From a virus, in IMG/VR virus record IMGVR_UViG_3300020274_000001, positions 64,001 to 128,000 of that record: DNA of 64,000 nt; one strand, written 5' to 3'. Of the stretch, positions 637 through 27,574 are shown piece by piece. The notes below the pieces were generated by a model. The model searched no databases and had not been told where the DNA came from. It worked only from the letters and a program-made list of their open reading frames with translations. The first letter of the stretch is position 1, and each line of letters starts with the position of its first letter. The translations under genes and the position numbers were made by a program.

Positions 637-684
637 GGACCGAACCACACTATGCGAACTACATCAAAGCCGCAAGGTCCTTAG
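637..684 (+). ncRNA. dual-spacer unit (1 copy)
   Basis: GGACCGAACCA-cactatgc-GAACTACA-tcaaagcc-GCAAGGTCC-TTAG; stem variant GGACC/GGTCC. Confidence 0.75.
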
Positions 685-936
685 ATGCTATCAGATAGCA
701 TATTTGAAGTGCGAGAAGCCCTAATGAGTGCTTATCGACACTATTGCATGGACACCGACACTTTCGCAGGAGTCTATGACGAAGAAATGAAATCGAGAGT
801 TCGTCAACTTGTGACGGACATGACTCGAATACTTCTCACACCGGGGATGGACATTCCACCGGTAGCAGAAGCACCATTGGTTGAAGATTGGGACCCTACC
901 GTATGGCAGGACCTATATCCTCAACCCGAGACTTGA
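685..936 (+). CDS. hypothetical protein
   Basis: ORF starts directly after TTAG junction; stop lies in the next hairpin. Confidence 0.75.
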   Translation: MLSDSIFEVREALMSAYRHYCMDTDTFAGVYDEEMKSRVRQLVTDMTRILLTPGMDIPPVAEAPLVEDWDPTVWQDLYPQPET

Positions 937-945
937 GTCTCATAG

Positions 946-1332
946 ATGGTATGCGTTACATACATCAAAACCGGTGCAGACACCGGATTGGTCGTGCCGT
1001 ATGATACGGGCGACTACCACACATGGAAAGGGCACGAAGCAGACTTGCTTCTAAAAGACCCTCCGAGAGAACTCTCGGGAATGGAAAAGTGCTACCACGT
1101 TAAGTGGATAAACAAGACGCCTCGAATGACAAATAAGCAAATTATTTCTTCTGAAGAATTTGCCGAAAAGTATGAGGTTAATTGTGAAAGAATTGAAGGA
1201 AATACTCCTACATTCCATGTTACACGAGGTGGCGGATTTACAATCAAAGTCACTAACGGCAATGGGGCTTTTGGCCACTTGGACTATGTCGCACGCCCAC
1301 TTTGGGTAACAGGCGATAAGAGGACTCGTTAG
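946..1332 (+). CDS. hypothetical protein
   Basis: GAGACT/AGTCTC hairpin+ATAG+ATG. Confidence 0.75.
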   Translation: MVCVTYIKTGADTGLVVPYDTGDYHTWKGHEADLLLKDPPRELSGMEKCYHVKWINKTPRMTNKQIISSEEFAEKYEVNCERIEGNTPTFHVTRGGGFTIKVTNGNGAFGHLDYVARPLWVTGDKRTR

Positions 1333-1364
1333 AGTTCATAACCGGTCGATACATCGACCATAGG

Positions 1365-2030
1365 ATGAGAGTCATATGGAATGACGATAAAAGGGCACTA
1401 AGGACACACGAATGTCTATCTGCCCTTTCCATCTACCACGCCTACAAAGAGGCTGGAGATAACTATCTTGACGAAGTCGACGTAGCAAGACAAGGCTATG
1501 TGGTTCGTCGAGATATTCGGAATACCACACCGGCATCTGTATTTGAGGTCTTTACAGAACTCTACCAATCATTGGTGGAAGACATAGACAACCTATACAA
1601 TGACCGAGATGGTTTGCGTCAAAGAATGCAAGAAGGTTCATGGGACCCAATTGACGAATTGATGAATGATGGCCGAATGAAAAACGCTATTGGCGTATTC
1701 CTACAAAGGAAGAACATGATTGTTAATCGTATGCCGGAAAATAAAGCATACGACAAGGCTCGAGATGACTTGAGTTCTGCAATCGAGGATATGAAGGGAT
1801 TCATCGGAGCGTTCCTATCGGATGCTTCACAAACACTCTTGACAGCAATTTCACGAAATGGTTTGAAAGACGGAAAGGACATCGGGGCACTCAAGCCTCG
1901 CGTTCTCGGTCTTGACTGGAGTGGTCTTGTTGTTCGCATTGATGTGGACGAACAGACCATCATGCTGAATGAAGAGAAAGAGAAAGAAGACAAGGACACA
2001 AGTCCTTCGTTTGACCCTTCGTATGGTTGA
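1365..2030 (+). CDS. hypothetical protein
   Basis: 221 aa; GGTCGAT/ATCGACC hairpin+ATAG upstream. Confidence 0.8.
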   Translation: MRVIWNDDKRALRTHECLSALSIYHAYKEAGDNYLDEVDVARQGYVVRRDIRNTTPASVFEVFTELYQSLVEDIDNLYNDRDGLRQRMQEGSWDPIDELMNDGRMKNAIGVFLQRKNMIVNRMPENKAYDKARDDLSSAIEDMKGFIGAFLSDASQTLLTAISRNGLKDGKDIGALKPRVLGLDWSGLVVRIDVDEQTIMLNEEKEKEDKDTSPSFDPSYG

Positions 2031-2047
2031 CGGCCTTATGGCCATAG

Positions 2048-2245
2048 ATGATGCACACATCATTAGTATGTCCAATCTGTTGTTCTGAACACACCCAAGC
2101 GGTAATGATTGACCCCGGCGAATTATATTTGCCAGACTCCAATCCAAAGCGTATATTCGCTTGTTCAGAATGCGATTGTTCTTGGGAGGTTGAATACTTC
2201 CCTGCGAAGAAGAAGATTCTTCACAAACTCCCGGTCTCTGCATGA
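2048..2245 (+). CDS. small zinc-ribbon protein
   Basis: CPIC...CSEC; junction signal before ATG. Confidence 0.7.
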   Translation: MMHTSLVCPICCSEHTQAVMIDPGELYLPDSNPKRIFACSECDCSWEVEYFPAKKKILHKLPVSA

Positions 2246-2252
2246 GGCCATA

Positions 2253-2385
2253 GAGCAAAACATGCAGGATGTAATGTTAAAAACACCGTATGCTCATAGA
2301 ACCACAACATATGGCCGGAATTGTATATATGGTGAATGGTTCACAGAGCGAATCGCTTATGGCTGATTGTAACTTGGCAGATAAC
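2253..2385 (+). ncRNA. dual-spacer units (2 copies + 1 degenerate)
   Basis: GAGC-stem unit tgcaggat/aaaacacc; GAACC-stem unit tatggccg/tatatggt; remnant cttatggc/acttggca lacking the 3' stem arm. Confidence 0.75.
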
Positions 2386-2667
2386 ATGCCAAGTGCACTA
2401 CAAAAGAAAGTTCAGCCAGTCGGACCCCTTGCAGATATTGTGGGTTCAAAGAAATTAACTCGTGGAGAAATCGTAAAGAAATTATGGGCTCACATTAAGA
2501 AGCACAAACTCCAAGGAGAGAAAGGTGACACCTGTAAATACAACGGTAAGACCTACAAGGGAGGTCAAGTCATTTTCTGCGAGACAGATGAAATGTATGC
2601 ACTTTGTGGCAAAGACAAAATTGCCATGACTGAATTAACAGCAATTGCAAACAAATACATCGACTAA
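2386..2667 (+). CDS. SWIB/MDM2-domain protein
   Basis: LADIVGSKKLTRGEIVKKLWAHIKKHKLQ..IFC..IAMTEL matches the stand-alone SWIB pattern; start corrected to 2386. Confidence 0.85.
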   Translation: MPSALQKKVQPVGPLADIVGSKKLTRGEIVKKLWAHIKKHKLQGEKGDTCKYNGKTYKGGQVIFCETDEMYALCGKDKIAMTELTAIANKYID

Positions 2668-2693
2668 GTAGACGATATTCAAATCGTCTTAGA

Positions 2694-3134
2694 ATGCCTA
2701 AGACGGCAGACAAAGAAGACGAGGATTCCTATGAGAAGACTCGTGAAGTGATTGGCTCGACTACGAGCGTAATCATAACTCCAGACGGAGAAGACAATGA
2801 GTTCCCAGAAGGAACCATGTGGCTTTACTCCATTGGAATGTATGAAAATTACGGGATACCCGATATCGAAATGAGAGGGGTAGATACTCGATTTGCGAAG
2901 GCCGCAAGTCAAGTAATCAACGAGATGAATGCTTACCGTCTTTTGAACTTGGATAAGCCCATGTTAGTGGGCCAAACCGTTCAATGGAATACTGGTAACT
3001 TCATCATTACTGAATCTGAAGAATGGGATGGAATGTATTCATGGAATGAAGAAACCATGATTCGAATGTCATCTCGTGAAATGGAAATACACTGCACTTC
3101 ATGTCAAATGGAAGATGCAGGAGCAGAGGCTTGA
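2694..3134 (+). CDS. DUF4262-like protein
   Basis: WLYSIGMYENYGIPDIEMRG motif. Confidence 0.5.
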   Translation: MPKTADKEDEDSYEKTREVIGSTTSVIITPDGEDNEFPEGTMWLYSIGMYENYGIPDIEMRGVDTRFAKAASQVINEMNAYRLLNLDKPMLVGQTVQWNTGNFIITESEEWDGMYSWNEETMIRMSSREMEIHCTSCQMEDAGAEA

Positions 3135-3143
3135 TGCCTCATA

Positions 3144-3191
3144 GAACCTAATCATACCTTTTGTAATGCACCATGCGGGCAAGGTTCACAG
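3144..3191 (+). ncRNA. dual-spacer unit (1)
   Basis: tacctttt/ccatgcgg; stem GAACCT/AGGTTC+ACAG. Confidence 0.75.
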
Positions 3192-3413
3192 ATGTCTAAC
3201 GAAAAGACAGCGACACGAGCATGGAAAGCCACGCTCGTTTTTGGAGAGTTTGCCGACCTACGTGCATTCCTCCAGCAACATGGAGTCCGCATATCTGACT
3301 TCGCAATCACCGACAAAGACGGGAATCATCTCGGTTTTGACGACGTGGTGTTGTCTATGCCTCAATCAGTTGATGAGACGCAGACAACTCTGTATAGCGG
3401 AACCGAGGCTTGA
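3192..3413 (+). CDS. hypothetical protein
   Basis: ATG directly after ACAG. Confidence 0.7.
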   Translation: MSNEKTATRAWKATLVFGEFADLRAFLQQHGVRISDFAITDKDGNHLGFDDVVLSMPQSVDETQTTLYSGTEA

Positions 3414-3422
3414 TGCCTCATA

Positions 3423-3514
3423 GAGCAAACAAATAACCTGTGTTACATAACTTATGAATGCTCATAGAACCGAACCATTACATGGGAAATACACATGGCC
3501 AGAAAGGTTCACAG
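3423..3514 (+). ncRNA. dual-spacer units (2)
   Basis: aataacct/taacttat; ttacatgg/catggcca. Confidence 0.75.
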
Positions 3515-3769
3515 ATGAATTTCATTGGAGATTTCATGACGCCGGATGAACTTTCGGCGGACTTCGCCAGAACTGGCGGATACGGCAACATCAGAGACTT
3601 ATCAAAGGAAGGTGGGCCGACTCTGGAACAACAGCACGAAATTAATCGTGTATGGTTGAATCAACAATTTTCTATGCTGAAAGTTGGCGGGATATGGGCG
3701 TGGCCCGAAACCCGTAGACTATTCAAGAAAGTTGATAGAGACCATTTCAGAGAAATTGACGGACCTTGA
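3515..3769 (+). CDS. hypothetical protein
   Basis: Start corrected to the ATG after ACAG. Confidence 0.7.
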   Translation: MNFIGDFMTPDELSADFARTGGYGNIRDLSKEGGPTLEQQHEINRVWLNQQFSMLKVGGIWAWPETRRLFKKVDRDHFREIDGP

Positions 3770-3776
3770 GTCCATA

Positions 3777-3822
3777 GAGCAAAACATACCCTCCGAGTTA
3801 CAACTCATGTGTATGCTCATAG
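3777..3822 (+). ncRNA. dual-spacer unit (1)
   Basis: taccctcc/actcatgt; GAGCA/TGCTC stem. Confidence 0.75.
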
Positions 3823-3925
3823 GAGAGAGGATGCGAGCAGTCGTCCTATGCAATAACTGCCACTTCCAAAGATGGGAAGTATCGGGTGCGAGCAGTCCCC
3901 GAATCAATACTGTGCCTCTCCTTAG
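3822..3925 (+). ncRNA. ~100-nt structured module with two identical loops
   Basis: GGAGAG/CTCTCC closing stem+TTAG; TGCGAGCAGTC at 3832 and 3887, each in a hairpin. Confidence 0.55.
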
Positions 3926-4015
3926 AGCAAACAGACGGTTTGTAATGCAAAGATTACGTTGCTCACAGAACCGAACCAAACACGTTGCAATGTATTGAAA
4001 ATGTATGGTTCACAG
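3925..4015 (+). ncRNA. dual-spacer units (2)
   Basis: gacggttt/aagattac; aacacgtt/ttgaaaat. Confidence 0.75.
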
Positions 4016-4016
4016 A

Positions 4017-5063
4017 ATGGTGAAAATGAACATCACTATACAGTTGGATGACAATGATATCAGTTTAACTGAATTGTTATCGGCTATAATTCACAAGGAA
4101 CATGTTCCTGTGAATGATGTGCCTGTTGTGAAAGTAGAAGAACCTACTCCACAAAAACAGGAAGAGGAAGCACCTACAAAGAAGCCGAGGAAGAAATCTA
4201 AGGCTCGTAAGAATAAAAATTACGTTTGTAGAAAGTGTGGCGCAACCGAATCATCACAATGGAGGCAACGAACAGACCCAAGAGGAACTATGTGCAATAT
4301 TTGTCATATGAAAGAGTATAGACAGATGAGAAACAATGCTCTTGGGAAATCAAAGCCCGTTGTGGAGATAGTTGAGGAGCCCGTTGAGAAAGTAGAAGTA
4401 ATGAAGAAGCCGGTTGTAAAACCACGAATCATTACTCCGAAAAGACGGACTACTAAGCCAAAACTAAAGATTCCTCGAAAGAAGAAGAAGGAAAACCAAC
4501 GCCCCGAACTAAGGGACATTGGCGGACTTGTGGATTCTGACAGACTTGCTCTGCTCAAGAATTCTAACTTCAACACCGTTAGACGGTTTGCGCAAGCACA
4601 CCCGGACAAGTTGATGTCCGTAATGGGTTGTTCTTTGAACGAACTTGAAGCATTGGAAAATGCTCAAAGAAAGGCGGCGGCTCTACACCGGAAATATTCT
4701 ATGATTTCTGCGGCAGAGAGAAACGCTGAACGACTAAAGGACCAGCCCGATGAAAAACCGAAGTGGGAGAAATCAAAAACTCTATCGACGGTTTGGAACG
4801 GAATCGAAGGACGTGAAGTGGGGGCATACATGCTCTCCGACGTAGTGGACAAAGCATATCACATTGCTACTACAAACTACGAAGACACACCTAAGAAGAA
4901 GAAATTCAAAAGTCAACTTCTAACGGCAGGACAAGAAATGTTCGAAAAGATAGTGAAGGCGGCTAACAGCCCTAACTTCTCTATCTTGGGAATGGGCGAC
5001 AACATCGCTCTTCTTGTTCTAAACAAAAAAGACTGGCCCACTCTACGGGACATCGAGGCTTGA
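4017..5063 (+). CDS. DNA-binding protein with GATA-type zinc finger and helix-hairpin-helix-like region
   Basis: CRKC-GATESSQWRQRTDPRGTM-CNIC (C-x2-C-x18-C-x2-C with WR); LRDIGGLV..LLKNSNFNTVRRFAQAHPDKL resembles a RadA-type HhH. Confidence 0.7.
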   Translation: MVKMNITIQLDDNDISLTELLSAIIHKEHVPVNDVPVVKVEEPTPQKQEEEAPTKKPRKKSKARKNKNYVCRKCGATESSQWRQRTDPRGTMCNICHMKEYRQMRNNALGKSKPVVEIVEEPVEKVEVMKKPVVKPRIITPKRRTTKPKLKIPRKKKKENQRPELRDIGGLVDSDRLALLKNSNFNTVRRFAQAHPDKLMSVMGCSLNELEALENAQRKAAALHRKYSMISAAERNAERLKDQPDEKPKWEKSKTLSTVWNGIEGREVGAYMLSDVVDKAYHIATTNYEDTPKKKKFKSQLLTAGQEMFEKIVKAANSPNFSILGMGDNIALLVLNKKDWPTLRDIEA

Positions 5064-5075
5064 TGCCTCATAGGT

Positions 5076-5372
5076 ATGGCACAAAACCCTATCAAGAAAG
5101 GCGAGGAGACGAAAATCGTCACCGTTCGCATGGCTGAATCCGACTACAAGTTGATTCAGATGAGAGCAAAGGCGGCCAGCATGACTATTGCTGACTATAT
5201 CCGTTTGCTCGTCCTTGATGCCGAAAGACTTCGTGATTACGTTAGTGACGCTAAAGTGGTCACTGACAAGATACAGAAGGTAATGGCATCAATGGACCTA
5301 CAACCAGAAACCGAAGACGAAGAAGAATACGATAAAATTTCATTCGAAGGTCTCGGTAGTTTGTTTGGGTGA
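5076..5372 (+). CDS. ribbon-helix-helix DNA-binding protein
   Basis: KIVTVRMAESDYKLIQMRAKAASMTIADYIRLLV. Confidence 0.7.
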   Translation: MAQNPIKKGEETKIVTVRMAESDYKLIQMRAKAASMTIADYIRLLVLDAERLRDYVSDAKVVTDKIQKVMASMDLQPETEDEEEYDKISFEGLGSLFG

Positions 5373-5377
5373 TTGCG

Positions 5378-5791
5378 ATGACTAACATCGAAATCAACCT
5401 AACACTGGAAGGCGAAGAGGCACTACGTGTTCTACAAGCCATCCTAAACAAAGGAGCAGAAATACCTGTTACCCACACACCTGTGGTGGAGAAAACCGCC
5501 AAACCGGAGACTAATAATTGGACCCACCAGAAAAATACACGGTGGACCGAAAGGCAAATCGATTATCTTTCTTGCATGGTCAGAGACCATTATGCAGAAC
5601 ACGGCTTGATTTCGTTCCGTCATGAAGACCGAATGAAAGTGGAAGCCGAATTCTGGGACCTGTGTGGAGCAATCCGCTCTTGGAAAGGAATGAACGTCAG
5701 AACCTCGATTATGAGGGGCAAAGGCGACAAGCGTTTCTTCCCAGACGGTAAGAAGAAGGTTAAACGTAAGAAAACTCCTAAACGGTCTTGA
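5378..5791 (+). CDS. hypothetical protein (possible Myb-like helical domain)
   Basis: GGTGA RBS; RWTERQIDYL; N-terminus shared with the 23933 ORF. Confidence 0.65.
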   Translation: MTNIEINLTLEGEEALRVLQAILNKGAEIPVTHTPVVEKTAKPETNNWTHQKNTRWTERQIDYLSCMVRDHYAEHGLISFRHEDRMKVEAEFWDLCGAIRSWKGMNVRTSIMRGKGDKRFFPDGKKKVKRKKTPKRS

Positions 5792-5800
5792 TTGACCATA

Positions 5801-5848
5801 GAACCAAACCAAATGGAATGTATTTTACATTATTCGAATGGTTCACAG
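5801..5848 (+). ncRNA. dual-spacer unit (1)
   Basis: aatggaat/cattattc. Confidence 0.75.
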
Positions 5849-6109
5849 ATGGCCCTATCGGTTATTGAAAACAACGTCATGAATGCGCAACTGCATTTCA
5901 TGAGAGACATGCTTGAAGTTCAAAAGAACCAAGCAGAGGCAATGGAAAGAATTGCTAATCAACTCGAAGAGATGATGAAGTTCCTACATGGGACTACCAT
6001 CGAACAAGTCGAAAGAAAACGACAACAAATGAAGAAGAAGACTCAAAAGAATGAAACTTCTGAAGTTGAAGCCATGAAGGAATTCATGCAAAAAACAAAA
6101 GAGGCTTAG
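5849..6109 (+). CDS. hypothetical coiled-coil protein
   Basis: Start corrected to the ATG after ACAG. Confidence 0.7.
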   Translation: MALSVIENNVMNAQLHFMRDMLEVQKNQAEAMERIANQLEEMMKFLHGTTIEQVERKRQQMKKKTQKNETSEVEAMKEFMQKTKEA

Positions 6110-6119
6110 TCCTCATAGA

Positions 6120-7292
6120 ATGAATGCAAACGACATTCAAACCCTCCACGACAAATATAGTGCCTTTACTGGTATTCCTATGGCGGACAGTAAAATGTTC
6201 TACATTGAATACACTGGTATGGGCGACCTTTTCGAAGGTGCACCAGTAGGTGGTCGTGTCGTGAAGGGACTCGAGTTTACATATCGACATGGAGACTTGT
6301 GGATTACTACTCTGTATGAAGAAAGATTCGAACAGAGGAAGTTTCCAAAAAACACGCTTGAGGGCAACTGCCCCGAGTTTATTTGTTCATGGGACGGCAA
6401 TTCCACCATTATGAATGTGGGAAGGTGCGACGTTCTACTCATTTTGCTTGATTTGCGAAATGGAAGACATCACATGACACTACAACACAAAGGTTCAACA
6501 CTTTTCCGACACATGGGAGGAAATTTTACTTGGAACAGTGGTGTAGACACAGAATTCTTGCCGAGGATAGACTTGGAACGGACATGTAGAACATGGGCCG
6601 TTTCTGGTGAACTTGGATTAGAATTGATGCAGAACATTACAGGAGAGGGCACAAGACATGCCCCGTATACTGCTATCATACATGGTAGAGCCTCCAATAT
6701 TGGAGTTTCTTACTATGATGACAACGGCGGAGACTTTGTGGAAACAAAGGCTCTCGCTCAAAGATACGGCTCTAAATATATCGGAAGGACCACTTCGTGG
6801 GACGAGGTTTCTGACACCAGAAGTTTTCTTCTTCACGAAGACCACAGTGTGTGGCACAACAGAAGAAGGATGAACTCGATAAAAATCATGGAACTTCATT
6901 TTCCAAGAAATGATATCGAAACTGCTAACGCAACCTACGACATATTTGGAAACGCAGACAAGAAGCAAGCGTGCGGCTATTCTCTGATTTATGAGAATGG
7001 CGAAATGGAACGCTACCTCTTTATGGCCCCTTTCAAACGAGGCCACCCTCTTAACGAATTTTTGCCAAAAACAAGATTCAAGGAAATCTATATTCCAGAG
7101 CAACTACCGGTTGACTACTGGACATGGGTATCCGAAGTAATTCAAGGAGACGATGAATTGAACAAAGAAGAAAAACAAATGGTTGGTAAGTGGTTTACAG
7201 GCTACATTACCAATATGATTCGTAAGGGAAAACAACCCTCTGACGAAGAAATCGAGTTTGCTAAAAGACTCGGCGTTTACAAAGGAGAATAA
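6120..7292 (+). CDS. hypothetical protein
   Basis: 390 aa ORF with junction signal. Confidence 0.8.
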   Translation: MNANDIQTLHDKYSAFTGIPMADSKMFYIEYTGMGDLFEGAPVGGRVVKGLEFTYRHGDLWITTLYEERFEQRKFPKNTLEGNCPEFICSWDGNSTIMNVGRCDVLLILLDLRNGRHHMTLQHKGSTLFRHMGGNFTWNSGVDTEFLPRIDLERTCRTWAVSGELGLELMQNITGEGTRHAPYTAIIHGRASNIGVSYYDDNGGDFVETKALAQRYGSKYIGRTTSWDEVSDTRSFLLHEDHSVWHNRRRMNSIKIMELHFPRNDIETANATYDIFGNADKKQACGYSLIYENGEMERYLFMAPFKRGHPLNEFLPKTRFKEIYIPEQLPVDYWTWVSEVIQGDDELNKEEKQMVGKWFTGYITNMIRKGKQPSDEEIEFAKRLGVYKGE

Positions 7293-7301
7293 TCTCCATA
7301 G

Positions 7302-7919
7302 ATGGCAATAGACCACGAATCACAAATGCCTTGGAGGGATAGTGACATTAAGGAGTTGGATAAAAAATTCCATACCATGTTCGCATTTCCCAAGGTATTT
7401 TCAGAGTTGAACCAACTGTCCAACTCTAAAGTGAAATTCGAGATTAAACTGCACATCATGCGCCTTTTGCAAGAAATTGTAATACAATTTGAAAACGAAG
7501 ACAAAAGAGCGAGTCAAGAAGCCAACCGGCACTTTGCTTGGGCATTTTTGCCTATTGCAACGGGTTGGAGGCGACTCGCTGAAAGTGATTTTAAGAAAGA
7601 AGATGACGGAAATCTCCAGATTCTAAGTAATAATACACATCACTTGGGAACCATGATGTATCAATTTGGGGCAATGAACTTTAGTTTGTTGACACTCATA
7701 TCTCGAAGCCCGTATGGTAAAGAATACCAAAACAGATATCATCGCAACCTAATGACGATGATAGACCATATGGGAGCGCAAATACCTCAAAAGGTAAACA
7801 CTTGCGCTAAAACTAAGATTTTTTGGAAGACAGAAAATATGGGCCTTGGAAATCAGAATGCGGAGGAACCTCTCATTCATATTCTTGAGGCATTGTTCAG
7901 AGGTATCCGATATGGTTGA
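7302..7919 (+). CDS. hypothetical protein
   Basis: GGAGA/TCTCC+ATAG+ATG. Confidence 0.8.
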   Translation: MAIDHESQMPWRDSDIKELDKKFHTMFAFPKVFSELNQLSNSKVKFEIKLHIMRLLQEIVIQFENEDKRASQEANRHFAWAFLPIATGWRRLAESDFKKEDDGNLQILSNNTHHLGTMMYQFGAMNFSLLTLISRSPYGKEYQNRYHRNLMTMIDHMGAQIPQKVNTCAKTKIFWKTENMGLGNQNAEEPLIHILEALFRGIRYG

Positions 7920-8457
7920 CCGCAAATGGTTGAAATACCGAATCCGAGACGAAGACGTTTCCGGAGATGGTGCCTTCCGAAACAAAACATATTCTCTAAG
8001 CGATGGTAGTGAAATGCCGCTATCAAAAGAAGAATGCATGGTAATGATTGTTAGCAGACCTTTCTGCTTGATGTTAGAAAACACATACAATTGCGCCACT
8101 GTTCGATTTTCTTGGGAAGACACGAAGGACATAATCCATCACGGAATACTTGCCTATCGTGTTGATTGGGATTGGAAATACATTCCAGACCACTACACCA
8201 AGCATGAAGACGAACTGTATTACGTCTTCTTGGACCCGGCACAGATATCAATTGATATCTTGGAAGACGTTCTTGGCAACAAAGCATACAGGAACGTTCA
8301 CACTACTACTCTAAAGCAAATCGTTAGTCATATGGAACTGCATGTCGCTTCAGACGGCAAGTTCAGAACGCAACCTTCTGCCATTATGGCAACAGTTGCA
8401 ATGGCTATCGGTATCCAAGAAATGGAAATCGCACAAGTAGTGCGTAACGAGGATTAA
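7912..8457 (+). CDS. hypothetical protein
   Basis: Overlapping start with GAGGT RBS. Confidence 0.7.
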   Translation: MVDRKWLKYRIRDEDVSGDGAFRNKTYSLSDGSEMPLSKEECMVMIVSRPFCLMLENTYNCATVRFSWEDTKDIIHHGILAYRVDWDWKYIPDHYTKHEDELYYVFLDPAQISIDILEDVLGNKAYRNVHTTTLKQIVSHMELHVASDGKFRTQPSAIMATVAMAIGIQEMEIAQVVRNED

Positions 8458-8465
8458 TCCTCATA

Positions 8466-8513
8466 GAACCGAACCACATCGAGTGAAATGCAATTATGAT
8501 GAATGGTTCACAG
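8466..8513 (+). ncRNA. dual-spacer unit (1)
   Basis: catcgagt/attatgat. Confidence 0.75.
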
Positions 8514-8807
8514 ATGGAGCAAAATGCTACCAGCAACGTAGAAGAGCAAGAACCGTCATTCTCACTAAGAGAAGGCGTGCTTTTCTTCCAAGGGAAGATT
8601 CGTGAAACGACTGTTCTCAATAGCGGAGATAACATCCAAGTATGGACAAATGACCGCCGCCGGTCGGGAGAAAATCCTGCAACCGGTAAACCATATCAAG
8701 ACCCAGAACTCTATGTCAAGGTCTTGTCAAAGGAACAACAAGAGAAAGGCAATTTTGCCTCTCGGGTTATTTCTGGACTATGGTCTCGACTTAAACGTCA
8801 AAATTAA
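8514..8807 (+). CDS. hypothetical protein
   Basis: Start corrected to the ATG after ACAG. Confidence 0.7.
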   Translation: MEQNATSNVEEQEPSFSLREGVLFFQGKIRETTVLNSGDNIQVWTNDRRRSGENPATGKPYQDPELYVKVLSKEQQEKGNFASRVISGLWSRLKRQN

Positions 8808-8839
8808 AAACGGTCGCCGATGAGTGACCATAGGATAAC

Positions 8840-9793
8840 ATGACTAAAGATATAGTCAACGGTTTTGGATTCGTCGTTCTCGAGGTTTCCAAAGATGTAA
8901 GGCGGGTAAAAACCAGTGCCTTATTTGATAATCCGAACAGAGGATACAAAGCAAATCCAAAATGGAGCCATTTCATAAAAGGTGTAAGCCCGTCAAAGGT
9001 TTGGACCGACATCGGTGGCCCTGCGACGGTAATATTTCAGTTGAATAACTATGTTGTCACAAAAGGCAACAGAATGGTTCCCTGTATTGTTTCAGTCGAC
9101 AGAAGCCTAACCAACAGCGGAGATTCTGTCGGTGGGTGGAAGATATTTGGCTTTGTTAGGTTCACAATAGAATTTGAAGGTAAGACTTTCAAGAAGTGGG
9201 CCATGGTTCATGGTGGATGGGGAGATAACAAACTCATCTCATACAAGTGGGCCGACGCTGTTCAAAGCGCACAGTGTTCAAAAATTACGAGAAATGTGAA
9301 TCACAAAACACATCTCATTGCACCAAAGGAAAGTGGAAACCCCGGAGCCAATCTGGTCCCAAGGGCTACTGACTTGGTGAAAGAACCTGTGCAGAAAGCG
9401 ACTTTCGTTGCAGAAAGTAAGCGTAAATCTCTCGGAATGAAGAGAGTAAAAGCAGGCAACAGAACGTTTGTCAAAATCAGCGACGCTGATAGACTAATTG
9501 ATGTCGAAGCAGGCAACATGTCTAAATTGATGGTTCCGGGTTTCCAAAGCCCGGTATTCAATGTAAGGTCGACAACTACGTTCAGAGAAGACAAAGATGA
9601 CAACAAAGTCTTCTCTCTAACTGCTGGAAGATGGATGTGCGAACAAGGTGAAGGAACCTATCAGAACATCGAAATCTTCGACATTGCGTTTGGAGCCGCT
9701 CACCGTGCATCGGTGTCCGTGGCTTCTACCCCTGCAAAGAAAGATATTCAGAAGAAGCGTTTCAAGAACAAGAACGTATTCCGAAGACTGTGA
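8840..9793 (+). CDS. hypothetical basic protein
   Basis: 317 aa ORF. Confidence 0.8.
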   Translation: MTKDIVNGFGFVVLEVSKDVRRVKTSALFDNPNRGYKANPKWSHFIKGVSPSKVWTDIGGPATVIFQLNNYVVTKGNRMVPCIVSVDRSLTNSGDSVGGWKIFGFVRFTIEFEGKTFKKWAMVHGGWGDNKLISYKWADAVQSAQCSKITRNVNHKTHLIAPKESGNPGANLVPRATDLVKEPVQKATFVAESKRKSLGMKRVKAGNRTFVKISDADRLIDVEAGNMSKLMVPGFQSPVFNVRSTTTFREDKDDNKVFSLTAGRWMCEQGEGTYQNIEIFDIAFGAAHRASVSVASTPAKKDIQKKRFKNKNVFRRL

Positions 9794-9809
9794 AGGCCAA
9801 GTGGCCATA

Positions 9810-9903
9810 GAGCGAAACAGGGTATGCGAAATACATGATGGATGAACGCTCATAGAACCAAACCCAACGAAACTGAAATACAAGTAAGTCGTATGGTTCA
9901 CAG
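9810..9903 (+). ncRNA. dual-spacer units (2)
   Basis: gggtatgc/tgatggat (stem GAGCG/CGCTC); acgaaact/agtaagtc. Confidence 0.75.
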
Positions 9904-18374: not shown

Positions 18375-18413
18375 AACTTTGTTTAACAATGATTAAGGGC
18401 TTAATGTCCATAG

Positions 18414-18752: not shown

Positions 18753-19090
18753 TTGAAGACTATGAAAATGTAACAGATGAAGAGTTGAAACTTCTTCTCG
18801 ATAGAATTTCCGAATTCGCATTTGACTTTATGTCTAACAAAATAGAGCAATTTGGTGGTCTTACACAGGAGTATTCTCATGAGGATGGCTCTAAGACCGT
18901 TGTTGTTGTTCCAAAAGGGAATGAGGATGTATGCGTAGAGTGGACGGAATGTCCACATGGCAGGGTTGAAGTATTTCACATAACCCCTGTCGGTCTCGAA
19001 ATACCAAGACTCATAATCCCCGCTCCGACAATGATACAGGAACACATCAGTATACCTATTGATGCGTTCACTATGAAATTGGAAGAGTAG
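18749..19090 (+). CDS. hypothetical protein
   Basis: TTGA start/stop overlap, GGAGG RBS. Confidence 0.65.
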   Translation: MIEDYENVTDEELKLLLDRISEFAFDFMSNKIEQFGGLTQEYSHEDGSKTVVVVPKGNEDVCVEWTECPHGRVEVFHITPVGLEIPRLIIPAPTMIQEHISIPIDAFTMKLEE

Positions 19091-19108
19091 CGGCCCTGTG
19101 GGCCATAG

Positions 19109-19570
19109 ATGGCAGACGACATCAAAAGCACCGACAGCGACTTGTCCGGCATTAAGTTCGGACTTGACACATCGGGAAACACTCCTACGATTGTGGTAGA
19201 GGGTGTTCGAAATATCGGTTTGAAACAACCGGTGACCCAAGAAAGGTTCAATGAACTCATCGAAACAATGGGAGACAAAATGACAAGCATACTATCTATT
19301 GTTGAAGATGCTTGTAGAAGTCTACGTGACTTAATGAATGAAATGTCTGATGATGAGAAACTCATTGCAACTTACTTGATTGAACATACTACGTGGCAAT
19401 ATGCTGTCGCTTCAGACACGCCACTGTTTATGTTTAATCCTCGACATCTACCAGATGAAGTAGTAGTTGATAACAAATCAAATACAGTAGAAGGGGCCTT
19501 TACTAAGAAAAAAGGCGGCTTCGTTTCTGTCCGAAAGGGCGGAAAGAAATATTGGGAAAAGAAAAAATGA
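19109..19570 (+). CDS. hypothetical protein
   Basis: GGCCC/GGGCC+ATAG+ATG. Confidence 0.75.
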   Translation: MADDIKSTDSDLSGIKFGLDTSGNTPTIVVEGVRNIGLKQPVTQERFNELIETMGDKMTSILSIVEDACRSLRDLMNEMSDDEKLIATYLIEHTTWQYAVASDTPLFMFNPRHLPDEVVVDNKSNTVEGAFTKKKGGFVSVRKGGKKYWEKKK

Positions 19571-19588
19571 AACGGCCTTATGGCCATA

Positions 19589-19636
19589 GAACCGAACCAG
19601 AGAAAATGAATCACAATCAAAGTGAACGGTTCACAG
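19589..19636 (+). ncRNA. dual-spacer unit (1)
   Basis: gagaaaat/atcaaagt; stem GAACCG/CGGTTC. Confidence 0.75.
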
Positions 19637-19813
19637 ATGGTCACAGACCCCAAAAAAGGACAATGCCCGACATGCGGGCGTTTAACGCTGATATATATTG
19701 ACAGCGAAGTGCACACAGAATGGTGCGAAAAATGCGGGTGGGAACACACCGTCAGTTGGAATGAATTAAGCCCCGACTGGTGGCACAAACAATCAAACAA
19801 ACCGAGCGAGTAA
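19637..19813 (+). CDS. small zinc-ribbon protein
   Basis: CPTC..CEKC. Confidence 0.7.
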   Translation: MVTDPKKGQCPTCGRLTLIYIDSEVHTEWCEKCGWEHTVSWNELSPDWWHKQSNKPSE

Positions 19814-19821
19814 GGCTCATA

Positions 19822-19869
19822 GAACCGAATCATAACTCGGGAATTACAAATCACCTGTATGGTTCACAG
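19822..19869 (+). ncRNA. dual-spacer unit (1)
   Basis: taactcgg/aatcacct. Confidence 0.75.
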
Positions 19870-20196
19870 ATGGATGACAATGAAGACATCATCAGAATTG
19901 CCTCAATGTGGTATCCCTTTGTGGGGGACATAAAGGCAAGACTCGCTATTGGCTTGGAAACATACGGCCATGGCGTGCGTGTCGAAGATGACACAACTCA
20001 ATGGGGCACAGAGGTAAACTCTTGGCTCGAAATGGGATTAGAGGAAATCGATGACTTGGCAATCTATGTCATGGCACAACTCCTCCGAGAAAAAAAGAAA
20101 AACTACGACAACTTGAATGAATTCGCTGGTATACTCAAAGAATTGAGAGACACCAGAAGAAGAATCATGGAAGTCATGTTAAGAGAAGACGCTTGA
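19870..20196 (+). CDS. possible all-alpha NTP pyrophosphatase (MazG-like) protein
   Basis: R..IGLETYG..WLEMGLEEIDDLAIY (EExxD). Confidence 0.45.
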   Translation: MDDNEDIIRIASMWYPFVGDIKARLAIGLETYGHGVRVEDDTTQWGTEVNSWLEMGLEEIDDLAIYVMAQLLREKKKNYDNLNEFAGILKELRDTRRRIMEVMLREDA

Positions 20197-20204: not shown

Positions 20205-20254
20205 GAATCAAATCAAAAAGTCGGTATTTTAGACACCACGAGTATGATTCACAG
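20205..20254 (+). ncRNA. dual-spacer unit (1)
   Basis: aaaagtcg/gacaccacga; stem variant GAATCA/TGATTC. Confidence 0.7.
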
Positions 20255-20288
20255 TAATCTATAAATTATACATAGTATACGCTATACT

Positions 20289-20785: not shown

Positions 20786-20833
20786 GAACCAAACTAATTC
20801 ACTCGTATTACAAAAGATGCGAATGGTTCACAG
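20786..20833 (+). ncRNA. dual-spacer unit (1)
   Basis: attcactc/aaagatgc. Confidence 0.75.
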
Positions 20834-21288: not shown

Positions 21289-21334
21289 GAGCAAAACACA
21301 GGGCATGAATTGCAGGGGAACGGTATGCTCACAG
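21289..21334 (+). ncRNA. dual-spacer unit (1)
   Basis: cagggcat/ggggaacg. Confidence 0.75.
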
Positions 21335-21703: not shown

Positions 21704-21721
21704 GGAGGAATACCTCCATAG

Positions 21722-22311: not shown

Positions 22312-22406
22312 GAGCAAAACAAGTCGTGGGTATTGCACATATTCCATGTATGCTCATAGAACTGAATCAATAAGGTTGTATTGCAATTGGCCAAAAAGGT
22401 TCACAG
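22312..22406 (+). ncRNA. dual-spacer units (2)
   Basis: agtcgtgg/catattccat; ataaggtt/attggcca. Confidence 0.75.
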
Positions 22407-22648: not shown

Positions 22649-22696
22649 GAACCTAAACACAAGAAGGGAATTACATGAGCCCCGAATGGTTCACAG
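22649..22696 (+). ncRNA. dual-spacer unit (1)
   Basis: caagaagg/tgagcccc. Confidence 0.75.
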
Positions 22697-23212
22697 ATGT
22701 CTGTAAAAGAATACGTGCAGATACGTGCTGACCAATACAAACAGCATGACAACGTCTGGGGGGATTTACCCCGAGATGCGCCAATTAGATTGGCTGATAT
22801 CTTTGAATGGATATTACAGAATGGACAAACCTTTAGCGGGACCAATATGGATGCCGCTGATGAAATTGTCGAGCATTCTTTTCGTGCACCAGAAATAAAG
22901 GCGTGCTACCATAATGCGTTTTTAGTCCCCCCAGAAGTAAGATACTTCGAGGGATGGTGGGCAGGAATTATTCCTGTCGAACATGCGTGGAATGTCGTAG
23001 ACGACAAAGTCGCTGATGTAACGCTCACTATTGAGCAACATCGTGAACGAGCGTTGAGAGACAGACAAGAATACTTTGGAATTGAAATTCCAAGGGATTG
23101 GATGTGGAAGCAAGTAAGTAAAGGAACACACTTTAGGCCAGAAGGCTCGAGTGGTCCTTTCATCTACGACTACGTTATGGAGCAAATCGCAAAAGAACGA
23201 GAAGAGGAATAA
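22697..23212 (+). CDS. possible papain/transglutaminase-like fold protein
   Basis: CYHNA..YFEGW..HAWNV..D pattern. Confidence 0.45.
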   Translation: MSVKEYVQIRADQYKQHDNVWGDLPRDAPIRLADIFEWILQNGQTFSGTNMDAADEIVEHSFRAPEIKACYHNAFLVPPEVRYFEGWWAGIIPVEHAWNVVDDKVADVTLTIEQHRERALRDRQEYFGIEIPRDWMWKQVSKGTHFRPEGSSGPFIYDYVMEQIAKEREEE

Positions 23213-23221
23213 TTCCTCATA

Positions 23222-23314
23222 GAGCAAAACATGATACCAGCATTACAGCCAATCCGAATGCTCATAGAACCGAATCAAGTTTCACGTATGGCAAGTTCGT
23301 CGTATGGTTCACAG
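23222..23314 (+). ncRNA. dual-spacer units (2)
   Basis: tgatacca/gccaatcc; agtttcac/agttcgtc. Confidence 0.75.
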
Positions 23315-23731
23315 ATGGCATTAACATGTCCAGATTGCGGTCAAGAGACCGCTTATGTGCGTGTCGGCATTTACGTCGACCCACATGACACAAGTGTCGA
23401 GGCCCTGTCTGAACAGGTCAGCGACATCATAGGCACAGGACCGGAAGACTTCGACGACGAACTTCCTACGGTCTGTGCAGAGTGCGAATGCCAAGTCCCA
23501 TACAGACTTGCATTTGCCGCCACTGTAAGAAAGCAGGCTCACAAGAATGACGAAGAAGCGGCAATGGCTTACCGTCATGCGCTTGCTGGAGTTGTCCATT
23601 TCTTTGGACGCCTACCAATCGCCGAAAATGAGGCTTGGACAGAGGACCAGCATGAAGCCTATGAAGCAACACACCGTTTGTTCGCTGTTCTTGATGAACC
23701 CGAACAAGACGAAACCTCGGAAGAGGAATGA
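23315..23731 (+). CDS. zinc-ribbon protein
   Basis: CPDC..CAEC; start corrected. Confidence 0.7.
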   Translation: MALTCPDCGQETAYVRVGIYVDPHDTSVEALSEQVSDIIGTGPEDFDDELPTVCAECECQVPYRLAFAATVRKQAHKNDEEAAMAYRHALAGVVHFFGRLPIAENEAWTEDQHEAYEATHRLFAVLDEPEQDETSEEE

Positions 23732-24580: not shown

Positions 24581-24672
24581 GAGCAAACAAGCCATCCGAA
24601 ATATACAAAATGTGAAGGCTCATAGAACCCAATCAAGTGATTTGAAATACAGGAAATTTGAATGGTTCACAG
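24581..24672 (+). ncRNA. dual-spacer units (2)
   Basis: agccatcc/caaaatgt; agtgattt/ggaaattt. Confidence 0.75.
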
Positions 24673-25341: not shown

Positions 25342-25434
25342 GAGCGAATCATTCAGCCTGTATTGCACAGCCTAAGAACGCTCATAGAACCGAACCATCA
25401 TTGAGGAATTACAAAACACCAGAATGGTTCACAG
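25342..25434 (+). ncRNA. dual-spacer units (2)
   Basis: ttcagcct/cagcctaa; tcattgag/aaacacca. Confidence 0.75.
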
Positions 25435-25815: not shown

Positions 25816-25825
25816 AAGGACCATA

Positions 25826-25919
25826 GAGCAAAAACATCGTCTCTGAAATGCACAAGAAAGGAATGCTCATAGAACCAAATCAAGCATGCTGAATTGCAGG
25901 TGATTCGTAAGGTTCACAG
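25826..25919 (+). ncRNA. dual-spacer units (2)
   Basis: tcgtctct/caagaaag; agcatgct/ggtgattc. Confidence 0.75.
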
Positions 25920-25921
25920 AA

Positions 25922-26569
25922 ATGCGTTATTTCAAAAATTATGACGACGCTTGGAGTTATCTCCAAAGAGGTCGAAACATCGAGAAGGGGAGACCTATCG
26001 GTGCGCACACCAGAATTTACAAACGTAAAGATGGAACAATAGCAATCAGATATCACAGCACTGATATTGTTCGCTATTACAAGCATAAGAACGGAAAGCA
26101 ATGGATGTCATTTGACAACGAGGGATGGACCTCCACGACAACATTGCAAAGACTGCATTACGTCATGCCCAATGGCATAGGCGTCGATACGAGTCTAAAC
26201 CGATTCATAGGACAGTGGTTTACCAGATGTAACGGTGAATTATACAACCTAAACCATCACGTAAAATTCGATGAAAATCTTAACGTAAAAAACAAGAAAC
26301 AGATGTCTCTGAAAACGATGGACAATATCAGTGATGCTGGGACAAGAATAAGAAAATTGTTAGCATCATCATTGAGTTCAATTGAAAGAGATGTTTCAAA
26401 GAAGAGGCAAGAAAATGCCGAACTCTCCTACGAGAGAATTCAACTTCGTGGCGAAATAATGGCTTTCGAAGAAATGAGAGAAACACTTCGTGGAGAAGTA
26501 GGATACTTGTTGAAACTAAAGAAGGGCGACACCGATAATGGTGCAAAAGACGTCCTCAACAGGGTGTAA
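25922..26569 (+). CDS. conserved phage-type hypothetical protein
   Basis: IRYHSTDIV..GWTSTTTLQRL. Confidence 0.7.
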   Translation: MRYFKNYDDAWSYLQRGRNIEKGRPIGAHTRIYKRKDGTIAIRYHSTDIVRYYKHKNGKQWMSFDNEGWTSTTTLQRLHYVMPNGIGVDTSLNRFIGQWFTRCNGELYNLNHHVKFDENLNVKNKKQMSLKTMDNISDAGTRIRKLLASSLSSIERDVSKKRQENAELSYERIQLRGEIMAFEEMRETLRGEVGYLLKLKKGDTDNGAKDVLNRV

Positions 26570-26577
26570 TGCCCATA

Positions 26578-26784
26578 GAGCGAAACATCGAACCCGAATT
26601 ACATTGAACCCGTAATTCGCTCATAGAGCGATAGGTCATAGGACTAAACCATAACAAAAGAAATACAAGAGGTCTGAAAAGTCCATAGAGCAAACAACAA
26701 CGAAGAACTGTATACAATTAGAATGCTCATAGAACCGAACCACACCAAATATGCCGAATTACAGGGTGGCAGAATGGTTCACAG
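26578..26784 (+). ncRNA. dual-spacer array (4 units)
   Basis: tcgaaccc/ttgaaccc; taacaaaa/agaggtct (stem GGACT/AGTCC); acaacgaa/tacaatta; caccaaatatgcc/gggtggca. Confidence 0.8.
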
Positions 26785-27168
26785 ATGTCAGACGACATAC
26801 AATACGTCATGGCCAGAATTAAGGCCATGGAAGATGTGAGAAAGAATCTCGCATCTGCGATAAAGAAAGACAAAGAATATGTCAGAGAAACAATGGGTGA
26901 AAGGGAAGTCTTGGAGACCCCAGCCTTCACTGCAAAGATTGTTACTCGGACTTCAACACGATTGTTGGGGATAGAACATATTCGTAACCTATTAGGGTCG
27001 ACAACCGTGGATAAAATCACGAAGACGTCGGAATCTAAGTCGCTGTCAATCAAAGAAACGTTGGCTAATTTTGAACCGTTCGAAGTCGAAGACCTCGAAT
27101 TAGTTCCAGATTGGGCCAAGTCTGCCGCTATTACGCTACAAGTGAGGGAATTACTTGGCGAGAATTAG
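26785..27168 (+). CDS. hypothetical protein
   Basis: ATG after ACAG. Confidence 0.7.
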   Translation: MSDDIQYVMARIKAMEDVRKNLASAIKKDKEYVRETMGEREVLETPAFTAKIVTRTSTRLLGIEHIRNLLGSTTVDKITKTSESKSLSIKETLANFEPFEVEDLELVPDWAKSAAITLQVRELLGEN

Positions 27169-27427
27169 GCGAGCATCGGACAGATATCATACTCAAATCG
27201 AAACGATATTGAGAGAAAAAGGTCCGCTTGTTGCTTATGACATCCGTCAAGCAATGGTTGGGCGTTGGAAAAACGTCCCTACTCCGAATCAACTCGGAAA
27301 CCTATTAGCGAAAAACAAGAACATTAAATCATTAGGACCGGGACACAAAAAATCGTTCTCGGCTCTACTCGATGGTTCTGGCACAGGAGGTGTAAACCTC
27401 TGGGCTTTGGTTGAACAAGGGGATTGA
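27155..27427 (+). CDS. winged-helix protein (DUF3860-like)
   Basis: ILREKGPL..VPTPNQLGNLLAK..W. Confidence 0.55.
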   Translation: MARIRRASDRYHTQIETILREKGPLVAYDIRQAMVGRWKNVPTPNQLGNLLAKNKNIKSLGPGHKKSFSALLDGSGTGGVNLWALVEQGD

Positions 27428-27434
27428 CCCCATA

Positions 27435-27574
27435 GAGCAAAACAGGCACGGTGAAATACATAGGACACGTATGCTCATAGAACCAAAACACTTTGTCGGT
27501 ATTGCATACTTGTAGTGTGGTTCACAGAATCGAATCAAGTATACAGTATTGTAGAACAAAAGAATGATTTATTG
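27435..27574 (+). ncRNA. dual-spacer array (3 units)
   Basis: ggcacggt/taggacac; ctttgtcg/tacttgta; agtataca/gaacaaaa. Confidence 0.8.

Follow-up and report, generated by a model that had tools for sequence, protein, structure and literature searches.

A window of 64,000 nucleotides (nt), which covers positions 64,001–128,000 of the virus record IMGVR_UViG_3300020274_000001 in IMG/VR, contains a dispersed family of short units, each with two variable segments held between conserved letters and a closing stem. These units are probably genes for guide RNAs of the stem-loop TIGR type, which serve the single nuclease-less TasA protein of the virus. By homology, each unit would act as a guide with two spacers. 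The original prediction, which had taken the units for programmable dual-spacer guides related to TIGR, is supported by the presence of a tasA gene, by the box letters in the arrays of relatives and by the replacement of spacers. The record is that of a complete virus of 140,336 bp with terminal repeats, and a repeat of 55 nt was found in it.

Direct reading and stem scans gave 41 units between window positions 637 and 27527, 15 of type A and 26 of type B, and a degenerate copy at 27527–27574. They stand at 27 intergenic loci, one to four in tandem, every one on the + strand; this arrangement had been described correctly, as had the single degenerate copy, and the earlier count of 42 units is lowered by one. 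Three more units, in the order B-A-B (genome 53,471–53,609), lie upstream of the window and bring the total for the genome to 44. Type A units are 46 nt long and follow the pattern GAGCA..TGCTC-ATAG, with GAGCA/TGCTC or GAGCG/CGCTC stems. Type B units are 48 nt long and follow the pattern GAACC..GGTTC-ACAG; 24 have GAACC/GGTTC-like stems, and GGACC/GGTCC, GAATC/GATTC and GGACT/AGTCC variants are also found.

The aligned consensus reads stem5 - (G/A)AAY - CA - N8 - G W A W T R Y A - N8 - G W A (N) - stem5' - A(C/T)AG, in which the motif CA-N8-G(W)A occurs twice per unit; columns 10–11, 20–22, 26–27 and 36–38 are nearly invariant in 23–24 B units. The exact 8+8 spacing is kept in 35 of the 44 units, and the other nine contain a 9–13-nt segment or a linker of another length, in agreement with the earlier remark that a few segments run to 9–13 nt. 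A strict 8+8 regular expression combined with a stem check matched 35 times on the + strand and once on the − strand of the entire genome of 140,336 bp, and 0–5 times in each of 20 mononucleotide shuffles. All 35 strict units are located between genome positions 53,471 and 91,480, and GGTTCACAG, with 24 forward and no reverse copies, is confined to 53.5–91.5 kb of the genome. The covariance model that the original prediction had suggested was built from 23 B units and searched against the window, two upstream stretches of the genome and 21 loci from relatives; all 107 matches at E ≤ 1 are on the + strand. No Rfam family matched the window at gathering thresholds, and the exact IUPAC pattern of the unit gave no stretch in IMG/VR when the virus's own record was excluded.

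The closing stem is paired at all five positions in 42 of the 44 units (218 of 220 cells paired, nine arm combinations). When the 3' arms were dealt to other units in 1000 shuffles, the number of fully paired units averaged 20.2 and reached 29 at most. The covariation claimed earlier is thus borne out: all eight stem pairs listed at that time were found, and the arm shuffles never reach 42 of 44. Within the B units alone, three pairs change on both sides. The terminal stem is present in the minimum-energy fold of 35 of 41 units. Inside the unit, G20 and Y26 are pairable in 23 of 23 B units (16 GC, 7 GU) and C10 and G36 in 22 of 23; these columns are nearly constant, and this indicates compatibility with pairing and not covariation.

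The gaps between genes follow a common grammar, consisting of a stop codon in or beside a short hairpin with ATAG, an optional A unit, an optional B unit and an ATG 0–2 nt further on. Adjacent elements overlap by the G of AYAG. The plain hairpins with AYAG (+ strand, between 216 and 27480; for example, 928–945, 3126–3144, 5055–5073, 13186–13201 and 21704–21721) stand before genes and before units, have the same tail as the units and often carry the upstream stop codon in or near the loop. In window 1–27,700, a stem of at least 5 bp followed by AYAG was counted 88 times on the + strand and 21 times on the − strand; in 34 of the 88, an ATG lies within 0–2 nt and opens an open reading frame (ORF) of at least 30 amino acids (aa), and in 25 of them the ATG follows at once. 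The tasA gene is preceded by the stem GGTTCCC..GGGGACC, then CCAG, then ATG (genome 52030–52045), so the punctuation tail is NYAG rather than strictly AYAG. An AT-rich stretch of 35 nt with short direct and inverted repeats (window 20254–20288) separates a B-like unit from the following ATG; only at a few sites is a unit set apart from the start codon in this way.

The tasA gene (genome 52046–53083, + strand) encodes P0001, a protein of 345 residues. It is situated 10,918 nt upstream of the window, and 388 nt separate it from the three units that come first after it; this is consistent with the earlier statement that no effector was recognised in the window. It is the sole copy, since a family profile search found no second tas-family gene in the genome. 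P0001 carries IS110/Nop motifs, and its best PDB match by phmmer, in three collinear stretches, is 9mty_A (E 9.8e-05), a chain of the TasR-tigRNA-DNA complex. No Pfam match at E ≤ 0.01 and no nuclease family were found for P0001. The AlphaFold2 model, built on a 19-sequence alignment, has a pLDDT of 79.8 and a pTM of 0.80, with long helices at residues 11–89. The Nop/IS110-like fold that had been proposed as a search target was found in it: in a Foldseek search of the PDB, TIGR TasH/TasR chains from cryo-EM structures take all of the first ten places (E 1.3e-06 to 2.6e-05), and the IS621/ISCro4 recombinases follow at ~1e-03. The helical N-terminus together with the lack of a detectable nuclease family places P0001 in the TasA kind, as a Tas-family Nop protein without a nuclease domain.

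Homologues of P0001 number 2523 at E ≤ 1e-3. A search of GTDB genomes with the TasA alignment gave 21 loci, all at most 48% identical over the best segment, and no hint of a host; all but one are in bacterial metagenome-assembled genomes (MAGs) or isolates, and the weakest, at 27%, is in an uncultured archaeon. The C-terminus of the P0001 clade reads AFFQ-DSENIIEVP, where relatives of 40–57% identity have P(Y/F)(I/V)L..(G/D)H... Stem-loop Tas proteins are described, in the available text of a recent preprint, as having lost a C-terminal Y/H processing dyad (bioRxiv 10.64898/2026.09.09.750476), and the aligned C-terminus of P0001 would fit such a loss. Residues 119–160 form a Cys/His-rich insertion (C122, H123, C136, C143, C147, H149), which runs from helix-hairpin-helix to the next conserved block and is found in some relatives and missing from others. 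This insertion may bind a metal and may stand where a wedge insertion might be expected in Tas proteins.

The arrays of distant relatives provide a direct comparison for the units. For 80 IMG/VR loci with homologues of 36–47% identity, the sequences were fetched, and 82 loci, 80 of them homologue loci, were scanned for a period. At least 37 of the homologue loci, among the best 40 of the 82, have a 34- or 36-nt period with an autocorrelation of 0.67–0.79, and the periodic array adjoins the tas gene in the loci inspected. The dual-repeat arrays read GAGAGAACCA-N8-GAATGAATCA-N8 in locus L051, GAGCGAGCCA-N8-GAACATCA-N8 in L003 and GAATGAATCA-N8-GAATATGCA-N8 in L102. The letters ..CA before and GA.. 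after each N8 in these arrays are the conserved letters of the units of this virus, and the loop repeat GAATATGCA closely resembles their central GAAATGCA/GAATTGCA block.

According to the available text of the published description (PMC12045711), TIGR edge and loop repeats have box D at the start and box C at the end, joined by a G-C pair. In stem-loop arrays palindromic flanks replace the edge repeats, the spacers are 8–12 nt long and the loop is sometimes of constant length. The SpTIGR array of Salicola phage CGphi29, described in the same text, has 16 variable nt (8+8). Three supposed differences from known systems had been put forward in the original prediction, and they fared unequally. 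Spacers of 8 nt are no difference, as they are already present in SpTIGR and in the nearest dual-repeat relatives. The RUGAUGA and CUGA boxes are indeed absent, but this is normal for TIGR, in which the boxes are short (CCA/UG as published; CA and GA/GW here). Dispersal among genes is a real departure, the units being scattered in front of genes. Where TIGR arrays have an edge repeat, the units have a closing stem; this corresponds to the published stem-loop array type and is no departure from TIGR.

Close relatives of the virus show how the units change. A metagenome scan gave 16 loci (L083–L098) with a TasA 68–99% identical to P0001, and all of them have the A and B scaffolds, likewise scattered and in the orientation of tasA; the ten of these loci that were scanned for a tandem period showed none. 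In L097, 15 strict units extend over 21 kb and flank tasA on both sides, and more were found by the covariance model. Nearly all B units of the relatives (35 of 36) stand right at an ATG, and most of their A units (13 of 15) have another unit next in line. Eleven orthologous unit pairs were compared. On average, 10.0 of their 16 spacer letters differ, against an identity of 89% over the 90 nt that follow; ten of the pairs differ at 8 letters or more and one pair at a single letter. Units within this genome have a mean spacer distance of 11.8/16 and a minimum of 6/16. Five genomes were compared at the locus that precedes a small, conserved gene of zinc-ribbon-like type; the scaffold is identical in them, the flanks are nearly so, and the five spacer pairs are unrelated, with the downstream 90 nt being 94–99% identical to this genome. 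Units are also gained and lost between genomes that are otherwise ~87–98% identical across the region. The spacers are replaced between relatives and do not drift, which bears on the earlier suggestion that neutral evolution of the N8 segments between close relatives would count against a guide function. Two spacer pairs persist across viruses, those of window 3423 and window 14465. The latter recurs with 2/16 and 4/16 changes in L096 and L089, and the L089 locus is orthologous to window 5801.

RNA-library data were available as assembled contigs of four marine-labelled runs, X1–X4, of which 25 of 79 pieces were covered; X2–X4 are from one study, X3 contributed only two pieces, and many bins have no cover in X2–X4. 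In X2, 12 of 14 contigs are at least 99% alike to the window. The 17 pieces of X2–X4 among the 25 have 34 ends; six of these ends, from four sites, coincide to the nucleotide with the G of AYAG, where ~0.1 would be expected from 88 such elements in 27,700 nt. Three of the sites follow B units (8513, 14512 and 25919) and one follows a plain hairpin (13201), with 0–4 unmatched letters beyond. The X1 contigs derive from relatives; they extend across units and into the gene that follows, or hold units with other spacers at joints. The same contig end after a hairpin without a unit favours a shared processing signal, and the ends between AYA and G are a hint of processing at the stem base. From the G of the hairpin-ATAG to the B unit, window 13201–14464 is a stretch of 1.26 kb without an ATG-initiated ORF longer than 76 aa; it has the highest X2 depth of the region (23.7 in bin 13028–13693), and a 69-nt piece of it is 72% identical to genome 1770–1838. 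This stretch may be a long noncoding RNA.

Contig ends at these positions had been anticipated in one respect, as transcription starts mapping just downstream of the units were named as a sign of promoter elements; the contigs do begin at the final G of three units, and also at the plain hairpin 13201. The units would then be promoter or operator cassettes for the host or viral RNA polymerase, with GWAWTRCA as a TATA-like element, the 3' block as an initiator, N8 as filler, and a start at the G of AYAG giving leaderless mRNAs. The 25 stem-plus-AYAG elements with an immediate ATG and an ORF of at least 30 aa agree with this, as do the contig starts and the presence of an Rpb1-type polymerase subunit in the genome. 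There is also a precedent, since in the available text on halovirus HF2 the intergenic repeats (58 or 29 bp, 7+2 copies) are proven promoters with a TATA box at −26 (PMC8707807). Such a promoter role is nevertheless quite unlikely. Replacement of the spacers instead of drift speaks against filler, which should change like silent sites, yet 10 of 16 letters differ beside 90 nt of 89% identity. A promoter has no use for the conserved G and CA flanks, for the pairable positions G20-Y26 and C10-G36 or for the covarying stem, and identical box letters frame the spacers in the TIGR arrays of TasA relatives. Moreover, the plain hairpin at 13201, where a contig also starts, has no AT-rich box upstream, and A units precede another unit and not a gene (13 of 15 in relatives).

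Searches for targets of the spacers gave no signal. In the genome of the virus, 35 units in four arrangements (reverse complement of A followed by B, B followed by reverse complement of A, and two controls) had no exact match, and matches with ≤1 and ≤2 mismatches were as numerous as those of shuffled spacers. In 1.87 Mb of relatives and Tas-bearing contigs, 83 spacer pairs had no exact match. The first arrangement at ≤2 mismatches gave 110 matches there, compared to a mean of 80.6 in five shuffles; as these matches scale with database size (94 distant, 11 own, 5 close), they were counted as no signal. Enrichment of targets over shuffled controls, which the guide proposal had led one to look for, was thus found neither in the virus's own genome nor in the 1.87 Mb of fetched sequence. 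The two 16-nt target strings of the window 14465 pair occur in 18 and 60 stretches of IMG/VR. The 60 stretches are mostly ~35 near-identical contigs of one unrelated phage group, and ~11 and 22 distinct contexts remain for the two strings, none of them related to this virus; read without a control pattern, these matches are at chance level.

The lack of targets in these searches (own genome, 1.87 Mb, IMG/VR strings) would be expected if the units, although derived from TIGR and bound by TasA, acted only in cis on their own transcript, through processing, stability or translation control, with N8 segments that have no target in trans and are free to vary. The position of the B units, next to the start codon for 35 of 36 in relatives and for most here, and the AYAG tail common to units and plain hairpins are in line with an action of this kind. 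It predicts neutral drift, however, and not a near-complete replacement of spacers beside downstream sequence of 94–99% identity. Of the 44 units, 35 retain the 8+8 length and the box letters, which in solved Tas complexes place the spacers for pairing. In addition, a few spacer pairs persist, the window 14465 pair being found in L089 at a locus orthologous to another unit, and this persistence across viruses suggests selection on the spacer sequence itself. A purely cis-acting role is accordingly considered improbable, though somewhat less so than a promoter role.

Several observations weigh against the assignment of the units to TIGR guides of TasA. The fold match of P0001 is moderate (TM 0.44–0.51 on the query, 13–16% identity), and the comparison with the Y/H dyad covers the C-terminal stretch of the aligned proteins as a whole. 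The units form no tandem array beside tas: the three tandem units (B-A-B) begin 388 nt past tasA, and the other 41 are 11.5–38.4 kb downstream at 27 gene-separated loci. The spacers match nothing beyond chance in the virus's own genome and in the 1.87 Mb of fetched loci. The AT-rich letters are at distances suited to a promoter, with WAWT at −28 to −25 and WA at −12/−11 from the ATG. Contig ends cannot separate a transcription start from a cut, and a promoter would give the same ends; this evidence comes from 25 of 79 pieces, with X2–X4 from one study. No small RNA and no contact between TasA and RNA were seen in the RNA data, which, as assembled contigs, give presence and end positions.

The position of tasA varies among the close relatives. 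L089 has it (824–1865) flanked on both sides by homologues of genes from the window, while L095, L096 and L098 have a B unit immediately in front of it. In L097:1–21020 the homologues of early genes come in a scrambled order. The behaviour of the early region is that of a collection of exchangeable cassettes.

Hairpin-bounded cassettes are known from integrons, with their attC hairpins, and from T4-type phages, with their promoter-stem-loop cassettes. By analogy, the stems and flanks could be recombination signals that delimit mobile gene cassettes, and the guide-like appearance would be secondary. The cassette order differs strongly between relatives (L089, L097), joints in the contigs of relatives fall inside units, and units are gained or lost between genomes ~87–98% identical. 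No recombinase is linked to the units, however, and P0001 lacks a DEDD/RuvC domain and the catalytic part of IS110; two fixed-length variable segments and the box letters of TIGR arrays would be left unexplained. As any repeated scaffold would allow homologous exchange at the stems, the reshuffling can be a by-product. Recombination signals as the primary identity of the units are very unlikely, the least probable of the readings considered.

For TIGR-type guides, the following mechanism is proposed. The 5–6-bp closing stem would stand in for the edge repeat. Each 8-nt spacer would be preceded by a box C, 'CA', and followed by a box D, 'G-W-A', and the 8-nt linker G-WAWTR-CA would correspond to the loop repeat; the box D G would pair with the box C C both in the loop and in the edge. 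By homology, a TasA dimer would hold one unit, and the two spacers would pair with opposite strands of a 16-bp DNA site. As TasA has no nuclease domain, the complex would block or bend the DNA and not cut it. The units would be co-transcribed with the early genes and the RNA cut past the stem between AYA and G, at a signal common to plain hairpins, which would free guides of ~45 nt and leave leaderless mRNAs starting with G-AUG. Spacers are swapped rapidly between strains, and gene cassettes are reshuffled together with their units.

A wider hypothesis is put forward only tentatively and is rather doubtful as a whole. In it, one system of stem and AYAG cleavage cuts the early transcripts into leaderless mRNAs and ~44 guides; the guides, rewritten between strains that are ~90% or more identical elsewhere, steer TasA to silence the DNA of the host or of rival viruses during the virus's own Rpb1-type transcription, and recombination at the stems shuffles gene-plus-guide cassettes. 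If transcripts are indeed punctuated in this way, each cassette would link the making of guides to the expression of genes.

The individual units, all on the + strand, were located by direct reading or stem scan, and most are also matched by the covariance model. The first, a B unit at 637–684, has a GGACC/GGTCC stem, a TTAG tail and an ATG directly after it (covariance model E 3.3e-08). At 2253–2346, A (2253–2299) and B (2299–2346) have the junction G in common, and the B unit at 3144–3191 lies 3' of the stop-codon hairpin 3126–3144 and directly before an ATG. The pair at 3423–3514 consists of A (3423–3467), whose spacer pair is kept in L089 with 1/16 letters different, and B (3467–3514). A single A unit at 3777–3822 is followed by a pair at 3925–4015, with A at 3925–3968 (tail ACAG) and B at 3968–4015. 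Single B units are located at 5801–5848 and 8466–8513, the latter with an X2 contig starting at its final G, 8513. The pair at 9810–9903 has a GAGCG/CGCTC A unit (9810–9855) and B (9855–9903).

Further single B units are found at 10128–10175, at 14465–14512, where an X2 contig starts at 14512, at 15257–15304 (tail ATAG) and at 15637–15685 (49 nt, one 9-nt segment). The pair at 16599–16691 consists of A (16599–16644, 4/5 stem pairs) and B (16644–16691). The B unit at 19589–19636 has a sixth pair (GAACCG/CGGTTC), and it is followed by a B unit at 19822–19869, a 50-nt B-like unit with a GAATC/GATTC stem at 20205–20254 (covariance model E 6.2e-05) and a B unit at 20786–20833. An A unit with an ACAG tail stands alone at 21289–21334. 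The pair at 22312–22406 is made of A (22312–22359) and B (22359–22406), whose GAACT/GGTTC stem includes a G-U pair, and another B unit lies at 22649–22696.

Four pairs of A and B follow: 23222–23314, where an X1 contig from a relative spans both units into the next ORF (23001–23473); 24581–24672, with 4/5 pairs in the A stem; 25342–25434, with a GAGCG/CGCTC A stem; and 25826–25919, where X2 and X4 contigs start at 25919. The locus 26578–26784 holds four units: A (26578–26626), a B-like unit with a GGACT/AGTCC stem (26641–26688), A (26688–26732) and a 53-nt B (26732–26784). The last locus, 27435–27574, contains A (27435–27480), B (27480–27527) and the degenerate copy (27527–27574).

The genes of window 1–27,600 are nearly all on the + strand and tightly packed. 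The replication genes of the virus are archaeal/eukaryotic in type and include an MCM, the small subunit of an AEP primase and a family B DNA polymerase. Upstream of the window lies the gene for a 1664-aa Rpb1-type largest subunit of RNA polymerase (L001:2530–7524, genome 38529–43523, − strand), in which five Rpb1 Pfam domains were detected (best E 4.6e-45). An RNase H gene adjoins it (L001:8380–8832, − strand), and the gene for the family B DNA polymerase is nearby (L241:15158–18220, genome 35157–38219, + strand). A DNA primase small-subunit (AEP) domain is encoded in two separate genes, one at window 16692–17903 (+ strand) in the unit-rich early block and one at 27635–28957 (− strand) beside MCM. 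A 934-aa protein encoded at window 56396–59200 (+ strand) combines a HAD-type phosphatase domain (residues 49–197) with a NUDIX domain (556–672).

A tblastn search of the phage collection with the MCM had as its best matches 15 records, each from an archaeal virus, with 24–28% identity, and the protein is 76% identical to one entry of the protein collection, whose source label is a Euryarchaeota MAG. Searches of IMG/VR with the single protein and with a 16-sequence alignment gave no MCM relatives, so sibling viruses can be reached only through metagenome loci anchored by tasA. No match to window 1–20000 was found in the phage collection by megablast, no capsid, portal or terminase gave a Pfam match among the large ORFs of the right half, and a tRNA scan gave no genes. 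A haloarchaeal virus, suggested by the acidic-looking proteins, was considered and dropped, as the relatives and the RNA runs carry marine labels.

The system is probably a TIGR-TasA of the stem-loop type, a kind that is already known. The new features are the guides scattered cassette by cassette over 38 kb, the two scaffold classes in fixed order, the AYAG stem-base motif common to plain hairpins and the renewal of spacers at fixed sites at the level of strains. The published work of 2025 and 2026, in the text available, describes arrays near or inside tas and, for stem-loop TIGR, sub-arrays and flexible positions near or inside tas (PMC12045711, bioRxiv 10.64898/2026.09.09.750476). A scattered-guide layout was not described in the literature searched, as far as the accessible parts of these sources go, and entries for this tas lineage and some of its units may already exist in TIGRSafari or in the paper supplements.

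The natural role of TIGR-Tas is left open in the available text of both sources, with regard to the targets, the origin of the spacers and the enzyme that processes stem-loop guides (PMC12045711, bioRxiv 10.64898/2026.09.09.750476). This lineage offers dozens of probable guides per genome at fixed, gene-anchored positions, and many relatives in marine metagenomes have another spacer pair at the same position, which makes renewal traceable site by site. If the wider hypothesis of transcript punctuation is true, the lineage would be the first in nature that allows the renewal of TIGR spacers to be followed at orthologous sites. The stem-base signal common to guides and plain hairpins points to a general RNA-cutting activity. 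Surveys limited to the surroundings of tas can miss most guides of a system.

Mitochondrial tRNA punctuation is a known case in which structured RNAs excised from between genes create mRNA ends, some of them leaderless. In the virus, guide RNAs and plain hairpins would take the part of the tRNAs, and cleavage is proposed.

Archaeal box C/D sRNAs, which work with Nop5, fibrillarin and L7Ae, resemble the units in having two guides, a terminal stem, a Nop-domain partner and scattered genes. In the available text of PMC12045711, snoRNA genes are called 'more sparsely distributed'. Unlike box C/D sRNAs, the units have guides of 8 nt and not 10–12 nt, and the fold of P0001 is nearest to Tas and not to Nop5; the expected target is DNA for the units and rRNA for box C/D sRNAs. 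An identity with box C/D sRNAs was rejected on account of the lack of RUGAUGA/CUGA in the unit alignment, the 8-nt guides and the lack of an Rfam match.

The HF2 repeats, as far as the available text describes them, resemble the units in standing before genes of an archaeal virus and in being kept among relatives, but they have AT-rich boxes and lack paired variable segments, a closing stem and a Tas protein.

The dual-repeat arrays (L051, L102, L011, L022 and SpTIGR) share with the units the 8-nt spacers and the ..CA/GA.. box letters; the loop repeat GAATATGCA/GAATGAATCA resembles GAAATGCA here, and the protein of these relatives is 36–47% identical to P0001. They differ in being arranged head-to-tail with a 34–36-nt period next to tas and in having no closing stem. 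Their Tas proteins keep a His-bearing C-terminal stretch, which the P0001 clade lacks.

The closest likeness among published systems is to stem-loop TIGR-TasA (PlTasA, from a Peromyscus leucopus gut contig, BlTasA and MbTasA), which, in the text available, combines a nuclease-less Nop protein with hairpin-framed units. [quoted passage not shown] This motif is CUU in the published stem-loop TIGR and AYAG here, where it also follows plain intergenic hairpins. While stem-loop TIGR-TasA has sub-arrays near tas, the virus has ~44 units, one to four each, before ~28 genes over 38 kb. It is also distinguished by two scaffold classes in a fixed order, in which a hairpin is followed by A, B and the ATG, and by its carrier, a 140-kb virus of archaeal type.

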